Virus record (IMG/VR): IMGVR_UViG_3300028557_000049
Location: 1 to 53,607 of that record
From: a virus
Taxonomy: Duplodnaviria; Caudoviricetes
Reading direction: 5' to 3' (one strand)
DNA length: 53,607 bases
Part shown: positions 2,979 to 48,295 of the stretch, piece by piece
Layout of the letters: each line of letters begins with the position of its first letter
Numbering within the stretch: position 1 is the stretch's first letter
Translations under genes and position numbers: made by a program
Notes under the pieces: generated by a model
What the model saw: the letters and a program-made list of their open reading frames with translations, nothing else
Databases searched by the model: none
What the model was told of the DNA's origin: nothing

Positions 2979-3539
2979 TCATTTGATTTTTTCTTCGGCA
3001 ATTATACGCTTTAGTTTATCCACATAGCTTATATCCTCAGCATAGTTTTGTTTTAGATAAACAAAATAATCTGATTCAGTCTTTACATCATTGAGATATT
3101 GCGCTTGGTAAAACGCATAATCAACAACAGACTCTTGCCACGTCTCATAATACGCATGACCATTTTCCTCACCCTTATTCGTTGTTGGTCGCTTCTTAGC
3201 TACCTTCATTCCAAAAAGATTATTATTGGTCTTGAATATCTTGCTATTAAAGTTTCCACTTTCAAGCTTTGCTTGTGCATATATTATATGCGGAAATCTT
3301 ATATTCAATTCAAGCAAATATGACTTAAGCTTTGGTGGACTAAATGCCTTTTCCTTAAGAGATTCATTTATAATAATCATCTTGGTTTCTTGGCTAATCA
3401 ATCGAATATCATCCGTTCTATTAATTAAAATAGATAGGGTTATGCCCATCGTAATAATGATAACTACCACCAACCCAATTAGGATTGATAGCGTTATATT
3501 CTTATATTGTATTGATTGCTTATCGTAACGATATATCAT
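2979..3539 (-). CDS. membrane-anchored glucosaminidase (GH73-like peptidoglycan hydrolase)
   Basis: N-terminal hydrophobic helix; AQAKLESG, NNLFGMK and YAED motifs. Confidence 0.8.
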   Translation of the reverse strand: MIYRYDKQSIQYKNITLSILIGLVVVIIITMGITLSILINRTDDIRLISQETKMIIINESLKEKAFSPPKLKSYLLELNIRFPHIIYAQAKLESGNFNSKIFKTNNNLFGMKVAKKRPTTNKGEENGHAYYETWQESVVDYAFYQAQYLNDVKTESDYFVYLKQNYAEDISYVDKLKRIIAEEKIK

Positions 3540-3854: not shown

Positions 3855-3887
3855 AAAGAAAAACCCCACCATTTTCATAGTGGGGAA
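3855..3887 (-). terminator. rho-independent terminator
   Basis: CCCCAC...GTGGGG stem followed by TTTTTCTTT on the minus strand, after the gp88-like gene. Confidence 0.6.
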
Positions 3888-3912: not shown

Positions 3913-4776
3913 TTATTTGAATAATTCAACCACTTGTTCAGGTGTTGAATTCTTATCGCTCAACGAATAAATCGAAACTACCAAATCTTTTTTAACCTTT
4001 TTATAGGCCTTGGTTAATCTAGTCGATATGCTTTGCGTTCGTATCGCAAACCCACTACTAAACGCTAATGCATTATTAGCACCCTTACCAGTCATTTTCT
4101 TGTATTTCAAGCCACATACCACGCCACCTCGTTTATCTAAGAATCTTAGGTCGTCAGCATCCGCATTAATTACTTCATAACCCTCATAGGCTAGGGGCAA
4201 TGCATCAAATACCATTGCGGTATTGATACCCCTACTTAGCAATTCTATTGCCTTATCATGATTGGTTTCACTACGGCTAAACGTAAGGTGATAATTGCTA
4301 GGTAAAGCCTTATCAAAACGAGTATAGTTTTTAGTATAATCGTAAAATTGCACATCAGGAAATACCTCAAAGATATTCTTATTATCAAATATCTTAAACT
4401 TTTCCCATGTAATATCTGTAGTACCATTCAAGCGAAATACAGGTATCGCATTACCCTCATGCTTCTTGATTGCCTTGGCAATTTCAGCCTTAAGTTGGTG
4501 CAAAAATTCTACCCTATTAGATAGAAAGTATTCAGACTTGTTACGTCTACCTTGTTGTACACTAGTAAACATACCACCATTGCCACTACCTACTAGACAA
4601 CTTGCAGCACAACCACTACTGGCATGACTACATAGATTAATACCCTTGCTATTATCACGAAATGAACTCATGTAAAGGATATACGTTATATAAGGCAAAC
4701 CAAATGTAGCATCATTGGTTTTTAGCGATTTAATGGTTTTTGCATTGTTAGTGGTTAACAGTATTTGTCTTTTCAT
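3913..4776 (-). CDS. GP88-family (radical-SAM-like CxxxxxxCxxxC) phage protein
   Basis: LCSHASSGCAASCL, RLNGTTD, QFYDYTK, NYHLTFSRSE, DDLRFLD; start set at ATG 4776, downstream of the promoter at 4801-4832. Confidence 0.8.
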   Translation of the reverse strand: MKRQILLTTNNAKTIKSLKTNDATFGLPYITYILYMSSFRDNSKGINLCSHASSGCAASCLVGSGNGGMFTSVQQGRRNKSEYFLSNRVEFLHQLKAEIAKAIKKHEGNAIPVFRLNGTTDITWEKFKIFDNKNIFEVFPDVQFYDYTKNYTRFDKALPSNYHLTFSRSETNHDKAIELLSRGINTAMVFDALPLAYEGYEVINADADDLRFLDKRGGVVCGLKYKKMTGKGANNALAFSSGFAIRTQSISTRLTKAYKKVKKDLVVSIYSLSDKNSTPEQVVELFK

Positions 4777-4892
4777 AATAGTGTTTTTGGTTTGATGTTT
4801 CAAAGATAATTATTCTTTTTGTAATTACCAAATGTTTTTTACGATTAGGGTAAATTATTTACATTTTCGGGTTTTAACACATATTTATTAAT

Positions 4893-5630
4893 ATGAAAAA
4901 TAAAACAACCAAAAAACTAACAACAATAGATTTTGTTGAACGAGCCAAAATAATACATAACGATAAATATGATTATAGTTTATCCACATATGTTACCACA
5001 CATATTAAGGTTAAAATAATTTGTCCAATACATGGTGTGTTTGAACAATCACCACATAACCACTTAGCTGGTTTCAATTGTAAACAATGTAGTTCTGAAA
5101 ATACTGGTATTGAAAGAAGAGTAAAATTAATTGATTTTATTTCACAAGCAAATTTAATGCATAATAATTATTATGATTATTCTTTAGTTGAATATGTATC
5201 AGCCATAGAAAAGGTGGATATAGTTTGCCCAATACATGGTGTATTTAAACAAAAACCTAACGCACATATTGGACAAAAACAAGGTTGTCCAAGTTGTTAT
5301 CATCAAAAAATGAAAGATAATGGTGGAACGTGGTCGGCCATTGCTTGGCATAACACTGGCATCAAATCTAAAAATTTTGATGGGTTTAAATTATATGTAA
5401 TTCGATGCTTCAATGAAAATGAAGAATTCATAAAGATAGGTAAAACGTTTAATAAATTAAAAAAACGATTTAGTCAAATACCTTATAAATACGAAATAAT
5501 AAAAACCATAACATCAGAAAATGGTGAATATATTCATGAATTGGAAAAAAGGGTTAAACGTAAATATAATAAACATACATATTTACCTAAAACTAAGTTT
5601 GGTGGAATGTATGAATGTTTTAAAGTTTAG
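4893..5630 (+). CDS. free-standing homing endonuclease-like protein (two CPIHG zinc-ribbon repeats plus GIY-YIG/T5orf172-like nuclease)
   Basis: YDYS...ICPIHG.F.Q.P..H...C..C twice, then LYVIR...IKIGKT...E; opposite strand to neighbours; ATATTTAT at 4881. Confidence 0.75.
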   Translation: MKNKTTKKLTTIDFVERAKIIHNDKYDYSLSTYVTTHIKVKIICPIHGVFEQSPHNHLAGFNCKQCSSENTGIERRVKLIDFISQANLMHNNYYDYSLVEYVSAIEKVDIVCPIHGVFKQKPNAHIGQKQGCPSCYHQKMKDNGGTWSAIAWHNTGIKSKNFDGFKLYVIRCFNENEEFIKIGKTFNKLKKRFSQIPYKYEIIKTITSENGEYIHELEKRVKRKYNKHTYLPKTKFGGMYECFKV

Positions 5631-5713
5631 ATATACGTTATATATCCCAACTTTTCACCCTTGATAGTCTTAGCATTGTTGGTTGATAGTAAAGGCTTGC
5701 GCTTAATTTCCAT
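5627..5713 (-). pseudogene. stranded original 5' end of the GP88-family gene
   Basis: MEIKRKPLLSTNNAKTIKGEKLGYITYI* resembles MKRQILLTTNNAKTIK...PYITYI; has its own promoter at 5745-5776. Confidence 0.85.
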
Positions 5714-5776
5714 GGCTGTAATTGTTTTGGGTTAATTGATGCTTCAAAGATAATACATTAATTCGAGATTTCCAAA

Positions 5777-6148
5777 TTAACTTTCAATTATTTCCTCTAA
5801 TCCGAAGTATTTTTTTATCTCATTTGCTTTTTCTAAGCCTTGTGTTGTAAGACCATTCTCATCCCAATTATCCACTTCATCATGCAATTTTTGCACCCTT
5901 GACAAAAATGATATACCTAATGCTTGTAATTCCTGTGGTAATAAATCAAAGACACCTTCATTATCAATAGCAGTATCTTCAAAATTATCAAGCCTTAAAC
6001 ATAGTTCTTTTGGTAGATGCCTACCAATAGCGCAGCCATCATAATACGAACACGTATATCTATCTCCTGTATTAACTCCACGATTCGTAGAATTAAAGTG
6101 CTTAATAGTATCTTCCAAAAAGGCCAATTGTAATTTAGATGTTTCCAT
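5777..6148 (-). CDS. hypothetical protein (GCAIG...LQxLHD type)
   Basis: ORF with own promoter. Confidence 0.65.
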   Translation of the reverse strand: METSKLQLAFLEDTIKHFNSTNRGVNTGDRYTCSYYDGCAIGRHLPKELCLRLDNFEDTAIDNEGVFDLLPQELQALGISFLSRVQKLHDEVDNWDENGLTTQGLEKANEIKKYFGLEEIIES

Positions 6149-7012: not shown

Positions 7013-7091
7013 AGCATTTGTGTTTTGGTTAATTGATGCTTCAAAGATAATACATTAATTCGAGACTTCCAAATAAATCAGAAATTAAATC

Positions 7092-16268: not shown

Positions 16269-16337
16269 AAAATTGTGTTTTTTTGTTTGTTAATTAATAT
16301 TCTACAAAGGTAATAATTCTTTTTGTAACGACCAAAT

Positions 16338-30918: not shown

Positions 30919-31117
30919 TAGTTTCTTGTTTAATTCTATTAAATAGTTTATTATATTTAGGACCATCTAAGGCGACCCTACATTTAAAATCACCCCAATT
31001 TTCTTTAAATAGAGCAATTTCGCCAAAACAATGATGTGGAGTTTGTACAGCATCTTTAATACAACGCCAGATAAAACTAAAAAACCACCAGATATATATT
31101 ACTTTAAACCTAGCCAT
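30902..31117 (-). CDS. hypothetical protein
   Basis: ORF overlapping both neighbours. Confidence 0.5.
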   Translation of the reverse strand: MARFKVIYIWWFFSFIWRCIKDAVQTPHHCFGEIALFKENWGDFKCRVALDGPKYNKLFNRIKQETNGNDN

Positions 31118-31425
31118 TTCTTTATCTTAATTAAGAGATTATCTTCAGCTTTTTCAACCATTAAAGCACCCATTATGCGCTTGGTGGCCGAACCAATCAA
31201 TAGCTTGGTTATCGGGCCGTGCGAGTTTATCGTTTGCCTCAAGGCACCACTAATCTTACGAGACTCAGCAGTTCTTTTCCTGTTTAGTTTTTCAATACTA
31301 GATAAGTTATCTTTTTGGTATTCATCGAATACCTCTAGAATACCTTCAATATCATTGGTTAAGACCAGAGTCTCTAGTCTGGTTCTTAATTTATTACGCC
31401 TAGTATTTATCCAAATAATTTTCAT
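31099..31425 (-). CDS. hypothetical protein (GALRQTINSHGPITK...SATKRI)
   Basis: ORF with own promoter. Confidence 0.7.
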   Translation of the reverse strand: MKIIWINTRRNKLRTRLETLVLTNDIEGILEVFDEYQKDNLSSIEKLNRKRTAESRKISGALRQTINSHGPITKLLIGSATKRIMGALMVEKAEDNLLIKIKKWLGLK

Positions 31426-31552
31426 TGTTACAAAGGTACTAATTTAATTTAACAGTTGCAAGTTTTATCCCTGTTTAGTTTTATTGGTTTAAAACTTCAA
31501 TAGTTACTAATTCTTAGGAAATTTAATGAAATTAACCTTCCTTTAATTAATT

Positions 31553-34498: not shown

Positions 34499-35134
34499 AT
34501 GACACCAGAAGAGAAAATACAACATAGAAAAGAATATAATACAAAATGGCGTGAAGCTAATAAAGAACGCATTAAAAAAGAAGCAGCTGAACGCAGTAGA
34601 TTATGGTATAATGAAAATAAAGACAAAGCTAAAGAAACACAAAGAAAATACTATCAAGATAATATCGATAGTTTTAAAAATAAAAGTAAAAATTATCGTG
34701 TAAATAATTCAGATAAAATAAAAGAATATCAAAAAAATTATAGAAAAAACAATAATGAAAAACGAAACGAATATAATAAAAATAGACGATTAAATGACCC
34801 ACTATATAAGCTAACAACAAATATTAGGTCAAGCATTAATCAAGCTTTTAGAAGAAATTCATACACTAAAAAATCAAAAACTGCTGAAATATTAGGTTGT
34901 ACTTTTGATGAATTTAAACAACATCTAGAATCTAGATTTGAATCATGGATGACATGGGATAATCATGGATTGTACAACGGTGAATTAAATTACGGTTGGG
35001 ATATTGACCATATGATTCCATTAAGTAGTGTAAAAACGGAAAAAGAATTGATTAAATTATGTCACTTCACCAATATCAAACCGTTATGTAGTCGCATAAA
35101 TAGAGATATTAAAAAAAATACATTTATTTCTTAG
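34499..35134 (+). CDS. free-standing HNH-like homing endonuclease
   Basis: Basic helical repeats then ILGC...HLE...WMTWDNHG...WDIDHMIPLSS...HFTNIKPL...N. Confidence 0.85.
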   Translation: MTPEEKIQHRKEYNTKWREANKERIKKEAAERSRLWYNENKDKAKETQRKYYQDNIDSFKNKSKNYRVNNSDKIKEYQKNYRKNNNEKRNEYNKNRRLNDPLYKLTTNIRSSINQAFRRNSYTKKSKTAEILGCTFDEFKQHLESRFESWMTWDNHGLYNGELNYGWDIDHMIPLSSVKTEKELIKLCHFTNIKPLCSRINRDIKKNTFIS

Positions 35135-47212: not shown

Positions 47213-48295
47213 ATGTTCATTAAACTCTACGCTGACCTTAAACTTTCGTTTTTTAAAGAATTCTTTAAGCTTGATAAATCAAAAAAAATGATACATTTAT
47301 TCAAGGTTAGAAAGGGTTATGCTGGTGAATATGTTGGACTTGGTGTATCTAGTGACTTGACCAATCAATATCTTCAAGAATTCGGTTTTAATTCTAAATC
47401 ATTTGGCGTAGTTGATGATAATAAGATTGATAAAATACTCCATGATGAGCGTCCAGATTTCTTAATCATCAAGGCATTCTGGGTTAGAAAAGATAAGATA
47501 GAATTATTGGCCAAGAAATATACCAAGACCAAATTTATCATTGTATCGCACTCTAAGCCAACGTTCTTAGCAACTGAAAATAAAGGCTTTGAAAGATTGT
47601 TTGAGGTTCTTGAATTAGCCAACAGATTAGATAATGTATTTCTTGGTTTAAATAACTTAGATTTCTATAATAACTTTGAATTTCTATCTAGAAATGTTGT
47701 TTATGTGCCTAATATCATTCTACCAGAAAATTTCTCCAATAACAAGACCAAAGATGATGTAATTAAGATTGGGTTATTTTGTGCCATTAGACCAATGAAA
47801 AATATACTTAATAGCGCAGTTGCAGCTATTTCAGCTGCTGATATGCTTGGTAAGAAGCTTGAGCTATATGTTATAACCGATAGAGTTGAAATGGGTGGTG
47901 ATATTACACTTAAAAACCTACGTGAGTTATTTGTAAACTTAAACCCAGAATTATTTGAATTGATTGAACTTGGTTGGATGACCCACCCAGAATTTAACGA
48001 ACAAATAAGACACATGGATATTGGTCTGCAAGTTTCATTTACGGAAACACTTAATATTGTAGCTATCGACTTCCTTAATAATAATGTACCAGTCATTACA
48101 GCACCATCAATCAATTGGTCAGCAAAGTTGGCTCAAGCTAATCCAGATGATATCGAAGATATTAAAGCTAAGATAATCTTACATTATAATAATTATTTAG
48201 TTTCTACGATGTCTCAAGGAGTTTCTTATTTGAATCTTATAAATTATAATATTCAAGGTGCTAAACAATATAATAATATATTGAATAAATTATAA
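47213..48295 (+). CDS. GT-B glycosyltransferase (GT4-like)
   Basis: CAIRPMKN, MDIGLQVSFTETLNIVA.D; ATATTTAT at 47190. Confidence 0.75.
   Translation: MFIKLYADLKLSFFKEFFKLDKSKKMIHLFKVRKGYAGEYVGLGVSSDLTNQYLQEFGFNSKSFGVVDDNKIDKILHDERPDFLIIKAFWVRKDKIELLAKKYTKTKFIIVSHSKPTFLATENKGFERLFEVLELANRLDNVFLGLNNLDFYNNFEFLSRNVVYVPNIILPENFSNNKTKDDVIKIGLFCAIRPMKNILNSAVAAISAADMLGKKLELYVITDRVEMGGDITLKNLRELFVNLNPELFELIELGWMTHPEFNEQIRHMDIGLQVSFTETLNIVAIDFLNNNVPVITAPSINWSAKLAQANPDDIEDIKAKIILHYNNYLVSTMSQGVSYLNLINYNIQGAKQYNNILNKL

Follow-up and report, generated by a model that had tools for sequence, protein, structure and literature searches.

A probable homing-endonuclease cassette with a replacement gene head in the 5' end of a phage GP88 gene

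Nuclease genes that occupy or adjoin the genes of their hosts have been described in several systems, and here we compare these with a locus in the IMG/VR virus record IMGVR_UViG_3300028557_000049 (Duplodnaviria; Caudoviricetes), in which a predicted homing endonuclease gene stands at the 5' end of a gene of the GP88 family. For fungal mitochondria, passages of two papers describe mobile open reading frames (mORFs), in which an endonuclease open reading frame (ORF) enters a gene together with a foreign C-terminal part and the native end is left as a duplicate (PMC3630166; PMC7487136); examples are atp6 of Allomyces macrogynus and atp6, atp9, cox2 and nad3 of Glomus (PMC3630166). The seg and mob genes of T4-type phages are presented in sections of a review as free-standing nuclease genes with intronless homing, which cut nuclease-free genomes and are copied in by repair; some of these cassettes hold promoters of downstream host genes, and genes can be split, as by mobE in nrdA of Aeh1 and by mobA in gene 39/60 (PMC2988022). 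The T5orf172 homing endonucleases of vibriophage ICP1, according to parts of a further paper, have repeated CapR/DUF723 zinc-finger modules and adjoin important phage genes (PMC10448857).

The window analysed (the entire record, 53.6 kb, estimated by CheckV at 15% of the genome, which implies a jumbo phage, here one of lake water) contains what is, judging from sequence and with a probability of roughly 0.8, a free-standing homing-endonuclease cassette lodged in the 5' end of the GP88 gene and carrying a replacement terminus for it. The interrupted GP88 gene is still a complete, promoter-equipped reading frame, and the native head survives, with its promoter, as a stranded stub of 28 codons. 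The features of the locus are as follows (window coordinates, listed along the minus strand, with the inserted unit last):

6148..5777, minus strand: 123-aa gene, first in minus-strand order, ahead of the native promoter-like site
5745..5776, minus strand: native promoter-like site, a match to the motif TTTG-N17-22-TAnnTTTG
5627..5713, minus strand: stranded native head, 28 codons and then a stop made by the junction (MEIKRKPLLSTNNAKTIKGEKLGYITYI*)
5630..5644: copy 2 of a 15-mer (exact repeat search), end of the stranded head and left junction of the unit
4893..5630, plus strand: nuclease gene, 245 aa, antisense to GP88, with two zinc-ribbon modules and a T5orf172 domain
4801..4832, minus strand: promoter-like site of the complete gene, inside the unit (TTTG-N20-TATCTTTG)
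4693..4776, minus strand: replacement head, 28 codons, with the long loop SLKTNDATFGLP (comparison with relatives' heads)
4678..4692: copy 1 of the 15-mer (exact repeat search), codons YITYI of the complete gene and right boundary of the unit
3913..4776, minus strand: complete GP88-family gene (PF17338), 287 aa, starting MKRQILLTTNNAKTIKSLKTNDATFGLPYITYI
3864..3885, minus strand: terminator-like hairpin just past the GP88 stop (9-pair stem, 5 G-C pairs, T-rich tail)
4693..5644 (equally 4678-5629): inserted unit of 952 bp, equal to the repeat spacing, made up of the replacement head, its promoter, the nuclease gene and one 15-mer

The initial annotation, a model's reading of the letters and their ORFs, had placed the nuclease between a stranded 28-codon head and a complete gp88-like gene, had given each head its own promoter, and had taken the repeated 15-mer to mark the junction. 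Every one of these features was recovered at the same positions, and the tests of the repeat and of the promoters agree with the roles proposed for them. The 15-mer GATATACGTTATATA has only two matches in the window (4678-4692 and 5630-5644), counting both strands and even allowing one mismatch, against 0.02 expected, and two or more matches were seen in none of 100 shuffles. The related GP88 loci number 160 (145 distinct proteins, with some contigs present in both of the collections used); the peptide YITYI is encoded by 23 of them, and none of these 23 has the same 15 bases (1-4 differences each), so that the identity of the two copies is a junction signature that goes beyond conserved coding. 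The stop codons of the stranded head and of the nuclease overlap at 5627-5630, and copy 2 begins with the G of the latter. The hairpin at 3864..3885 is the end of the GP88 transcription unit; no terminator-like site was found on the minus strand between the stranded head and the complete gene.

Both promoter-like sites match the motif TTTG-N17-22-TAnnTTTG, a short consensus that we take to be of Bacteroidota type. The motif recurs in this phage, with 22 matches in the window as compared to 4.09 expected (the largest count in a shuffle was 10), and 21 of the 22 are on the coding (minus) strand, including 4801-4832 and 5745-5776; a scan for sigma-70-type promoters (20 sites, 18.2 expected) was uninformative. 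By manual count, the native site differs from the window site at 7042-7073 in 1 of 32 bases, and the cassette site is like the one at 16305-16336 in 28 of 32. Since the cassette site resembles another site of the window, the donor probably used the same promoter type. Transcription from the native promoter-like site would now cover only the stranded head before running antisense into the nuclease gene.

The arrangement is present on independently assembled contigs, which makes an assembly artefact unlikely. Three Logan contigs from other lake-water runs span the GP88 head, the promoter and the nuclease start (X10 record 2, covering 4033-5023; X12 record 18, covering 4434-5420; X11 record 11, covering 4578-5459), and a fourth contig (X13 record 30) covers 5602-6106. 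A contig joint skipping the 952 bp was not found in the Logan contigs of 4 of the 24 runs (X10-X13), where cover is patchy and contigs lose rare variants, so this negative says nothing about the absence of an empty allele. The runs listed as containing the phage include no RNA run.

The complete gene matches the Pfam GP88 profile (PF17338) with an E-value of 1.3e-41 (residues 6-231 on profile positions 2-220 of 230), and as the profile begins at residue 6, the head belongs to the domain; it also matches phrog_1617, of unknown function (E 4.6e-57). The stranded head is 85-92.6% identical to the heads of intact relatives (92.6% over 27 aa to L005, 92.3% over 26 aa to both L004 and L010), as compared to 56% over 25 residues (tblastx) to the head attached to the same gene. 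The attached head has a loop 7 residues longer than the usual GEKLG, upholding the earlier description of a diverged head on the complete gene. This loop has 5 residues in 138 of the 147 motif-matched GP88 loci; the long-loop head of the window is common to L002/L159 only (25 of 33 residues); loops of about this length also occur in L212 and L214. With the stranded head near the heads of relatives and the attached head bearing a rare long loop, the stranded head is read as native and the attached one as foreign. Mapping of the donor tract in the window by DNA was uninformative, since every relative is at 50-80% nucleotide identity.

That relatives without the nuclease should have an uninterrupted allele had been proposed from the window alone, and such alleles exist: the uninterrupted sequence GEKLGYITYILYM is found exactly in 9 of the 160 related GP88 loci, and a clean empty allele was identified for a second, homologous cassette. 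In a motif scan of the 160 loci and the window, stranded heads occur only in the window and at locus L015, and these two are also the only places where a nuclease gene lies directly upstream of GP88. The order at L015 is a stranded head, an antisense nuclease gene, a promoter and a complete GP88 gene with a diverged head (MDYYVSKNLLSTRNAKT). The nuclease there (5849..4902, 315 aa, three zinc ribbons) is 45% identical to that of the window, is antisense and directly upstream of GP88, and its stop codon abuts the stranded head (ATG at 4855, MSYYVPTNLLSTNNAKT and then KL*). In L013, a close relative of L015, the stranded-head sequence is contiguous with the gene body. Relative to L013, L015 contains an insert of 1124 bp, with a 13-mer repeated at its two boundaries. 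The left flank of the two is 95.0% identical over 318 nt, and its final 125 nt, up to the shared block, contain a single mismatch; the right flank is identical in 681 of 720 bases, rising to 98.4% further downstream. The new and native heads of L015 are alike in 23 of 39 bases before the 13-mer block, and the encoded proteins differ little there. The occupied (L015) and empty (L013) states are thus polymorphic between close relatives at a fixed site, with intact flanks and clean boundaries.

The nuclease consists of two zinc-ribbon DNA-binding modules (DUF723, E 2.7e-8) followed by a T5orf172 domain (PF10544, 23.8 bits with a cut-off of 20, E 6.6e-5, residues 168-230), and it matches phrog_681, 'endonuclease' (E 1.4e-43). 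All 16 aligned homologues, without exception, have the residues Y168, G183, R192 and E218; Tyr...Gly...Arg...Glu is presumably the catalytic pattern of the T5orf172/GIY-YIG superfamily, and we infer catalytic roles for the four residues from this conservation. The predicted model has a pLDDT of 86.7; a sequence search of solved structures gave no meaningful match for either the nuclease or the GP88 protein. The family is large (4360 homologues at E<=1e-10), and the relatives P0023, P0025 and P0078 (58-61% identity) were not located in viral contigs. At Rfam, no intron family was found at E-values up to 1 (only a chance miRNA match), and the nuclease is encoded on the opposite strand, so the gene is repaired by neither an intron nor an intein, as the initial annotation had supposed. 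We note that both GP88-associated nuclease genes (window 5628-5630; L015, positions 4902-4910) end in the same nine bases, AAAGTTTAG (K, V, stop), with C-terminal tails that differ by 10 residues in length, and that none of the 14 other aligned homologues ends in KV. The shared end could be due to common descent of the junction or to coincidence.

As in mORFs, the foreign terminus carried by the unit keeps the gene whole, and the displaced native copy is closer to relatives than the in-frame copy (passages of PMC3630166). The terminus is likewise duplicated on both sides of the ORF with the displaced copy being the native one, both in the window and at L015, whose stranded head is the head of L013. 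In mORFs, as far as the cited passages go, it is the C-terminus that is replaced, by an ORF that is usually co-oriented, often in frame and mostly of the LAGLIDADG type, in an organelle genome, whereas in the window the N-terminus is replaced, the nuclease is antisense and of the zinc-ribbon/T5orf172 type, and the host is a phage. An N-terminal replacement obliges the unit to supply a start codon and a promoter as well. The cassette resembles the seg and mob genes as a stand-alone nuclease gene between or within phage genes; the sections of the review on these describe genes left untouched or split into two working polypeptides, whereas here the carried head restores the gene and the native head is discarded. 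The text of that review contains no occurrence of 'duplicat' (PMC2988022). With the ICP1 nucleases the window nuclease shares the domain plan, repeated zinc-ribbon modules and then a T5orf172 domain; the difference is that the duplication reported there is within the binding domains of the nucleases themselves and the sites are at exchange boundaries, with no replacement of a host-gene terminus described in the parts cited (PMC10448857). Group I intron and intein nucleases also have their genes inside coding sequences without destroying the gene. Their host genes are repaired at the level of RNA or protein, unlike the present one, where a stop follows the stranded head, the complete gene has a new start, and intron families and a co-oriented nuclease are both lacking. 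What is new here as compared to these known kinds is the N-terminal, promoter-carrying, antisense form, in phages. A phage nuclease carrying a replacement gene terminus was not found in the literature searched, which took in few subscription journals and no supplements.

We found evidence, at the sequence level, that terminus replacement recurs across phages and genes. Matching left and right flanks (700 nt before against 500 nt after the nuclease ORF, threshold E<1e-3) were seen at 10 of 81 evaluable loci of the nuclease family and in 0 of 241 mismatched control pairs, which were drawn from different genomes and so control only partly for within-genome composition. The matches at L084, L260 and L286 were discounted as low-complexity. 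The other 7 abut the ORF and involve real genes (the window, L238, which is the L015 contig, L244, L264, L265, L266 and L285), and the host genes beyond GP88 are those for SmpB, an SU10-type portal, DUF5856 and a 537-aa protein:

L265:2127-4052 (also L266): smpB (PF01668, E 2e-52), with a 34-codon SmpB head stranded at the stop of a 316-aa nuclease
L264:2901-3802: head of an SU10-type portal gene, with a co-oriented nuclease and a new start inside the nuclease 3' end
L244:2914-4065: DUF5856 gene, whose last 25 residues flank the nuclease on both sides
L285:2866-4055: gene for a 537-aa protein, with the last 19 residues duplicated (89% protein and 74% DNA identity)
L341:2830-4859 (second set, below): 561-aa nuclease that has several zinc ribbons and differs in its C-terminal part, flanked by 147-nt direct repeats

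In L265/L266, which are phage-borne, the complete smpB lies ~420 nt past the nuclease start; L244 and L285 are C-terminal duplications, unlike the N-terminal case of the window. More cases (L341, L350, L370, L381 and L407-L410) came from zinc-ribbon relatives, a second set with 126 evaluable loci, in which the matches at L345, L366, L395, L397, L398, L406, L415, L425 and L443 were discounted as low-complexity. The repeats of L341 comprise the upstream region and the first 33 codons of a 380-aa gene (49 aa at 96% protein identity), and this locus seems to be a recent case of such an event. Across loci, the identities of the flank repeats range from ~59% to 96%.

If the cassette moves by homing, the nuclease would cut uninterrupted GP88 alleles near the junction, close to the end of the stranded head, and the break would be repaired from an occupied genome, copying the cassette across. 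Homology on the left would be provided by the stranded head and the DNA upstream of it, and on the right by the gene body. An occupied genome would escape cutting in both of its copies, as the site has lost its right half in the stranded copy, and in the complete copy the sequence left of the shared block is altered, by a loop 21 bases longer in the window and by heavy synonymous recoding in L015. Antisense transcription from the stranded native promoter through the nuclease gene may in addition damp nuclease expression.

Several observations weigh against this reading. A phage-type promoter ahead of the nuclease gene was not found, the sole plus-strand match to the motif being elsewhere in the window. 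A Foldseek search of the whole three-domain model against pdb gave no match at E<=0.001. In the VIA wide structure search (residues ~150-243), GIY-YIG nucleases do take at least 8 of the top 31 rows, which speaks for a nuclease, and yet the matches to this fold are weak, with Z-scores of 3.0-4.6, all below 5 (PD-T4-3 4.6, HIGLE 4.5, the N-terminal domain of UvrC 4.2, Slx1 4.0 and 3.8, I-TevI 3.7, Eco29kI 3.1 and T4 EndoII 3.0). The nuclease family is not specific to GP88, which is adjacent in 0 of 75, 0 of 79 (a count that leaves out L238) and 0 of 137 other family loci. The closest GP88 relatives of the window lineage are only ~70-75% identical, so the window's own empty allele is reconstructed from distant relatives. 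L002 has the long-loop head and no nuclease within 6 kb, and head and nuclease are therefore not always linked. The tree of the GP88 body (a quick tree, with 10 of 95 rows left out for an unmatched head motif) separates the window from L002, and yet a single clade is not rejected in the approximately unbiased (AU) test (p 0.187), so phylogeny does not establish head swapping in the window. Lastly, the flanks of L013 and L015 are without a co-conversion gradient, which fits better with precise insertion or a very close donor than with classical homing from a diverged donor.

That missing gradient also speaks for a one-off recombination scar, in which an intergenic donor nuclease stood upstream of GP88 and one-ended repair followed by end-joining copied the donor head together with the nuclease. 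The head duplication would then be accidental, the unit would not move as a head-carrying cassette, and the nuclease may now be inert. The left junctions agree with this, as the nuclease end and the target share just 1 base in the window and 3 in L015, as in end-joining at microhomologies, and so do the nuclease-free head of L002 and the homologue in L007, a plain intergenic gene 4.3 kb from GP88. We nevertheless consider a scar unlikely, because the same end-product is found twice at GP88, with the left junction falling exactly at the nuclease stop codon each time, and again at four other genes, and the spread of repeat identities from ~59% to 96% argues for a repeated process with persisting products.

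The nuclease could also be a domesticated enzyme or DNA-binding regulator (for satellite defence, or as a repressor) that sits immobile beside an old duplication, and the co-option of T5orf172 and CapR-type proteins in the ICP1-PLE conflict is indeed described in parts of three papers (PMC10448857, PMC8263062, PMC8096241). We regard this as distinctly improbable given the presence/absence difference between close relatives, the clean boundaries, the flank duplications at many genes, and the position of the nuclease as the sole plus-strand gene within a long minus-strand run. Least credible of all are a chimera of the assembly and a scenario in which promoter and head were duplicated locally in tandem, the copies later diverged and the nuclease landed between them. 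The two copies do form direct repeats of promoter plus head, but the stranded head is nearer to the heads of other phages (up to 92.6%) than to its neighbour (56%), the 7-residue insertion of the replacement head is common to L002, the difference between L013 and L015 is an insertion and not a duplication, and the independent contigs carry the arrangement. A homing cassette with a replacement terminus is hence the explanation that we favour.

A wider proposal is that terminus replacement is a general invasion strategy of zinc-ribbon (DUF723/CapR-like) phage homing endonucleases, which would bring a recoded spare head (with promoter) or tail, settle in conserved coding sequence with neither intron nor intein, gain self-immunity, and exchange gene ends between lineages. 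The pattern has been seen at GP88 (twice), SmpB, the portal, DUF5856, the 537-aa gene and several more genes beside related nucleases, and we put the proposal forward tentatively, at slightly less than even odds. Homing endonucleases are not known to persist in essential coding sequence other than via introns, inteins or working gene splits. A nuclease that brings a replacement gene end, plus a promoter in the case of a 5' end, would be a third route for phages. It would explain short orphan ORFs that resemble gene heads beside nuclease genes, and it would show concretely how phage genes could come by mosaic N- and C-termini. It further predicts the target site, with the cut near the end of the stranded head, and pairs of occupied and empty alleles would be natural immune/cleavable pairs with which the specificity of this large, so far uncharacterised family of nucleases could be studied. 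For annotation, stubs like the 28-codon one should be treated as relics and not as small genes.

Nearly all ORFs of the window are on the minus strand, and other sizeable ORFs on the plus strand are found only at 31031-31447, 34499-35134 and 47213-48295. These three have no Pfam match and a single weak PHROG match of unknown function among them, and are candidates for further mobile or accessory genes. No close DNA relative was found among GenBank phages, where the top match spans 4% of the query. The minus-strand gene at 2979-3539 codes for a glucosaminidase-type lysin (PF01832, E 6e-17); over 159 nt it shares 72% of its bases with a Flavobacterium phage endolysin gene. Together with the promoter type, this lysin match hints at a Bacteroidota host.

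Some of the related GP88 loci have features of their own. In L001:6001-7182 (the L158 contig), no stop codon separates GP88 from the homologue of the window's 123-aa gene that follows it in frame, giving a fused ORF of 393 aa whose homologue portion is 44% identical to the window gene at 5777-6148; in the window this gene lies upstream of GP88, a gene order unlike that of L001. L051 has two full GP88-type heads ~3.9 kb apart on a single contig (6001 and 9870), which are probably two paralogous GP88 genes. In L002, the 253-nt spacer upstream of the long-loop GP88 allele is A+T-rich except for a G+C-rich stretch at 5800-5860.

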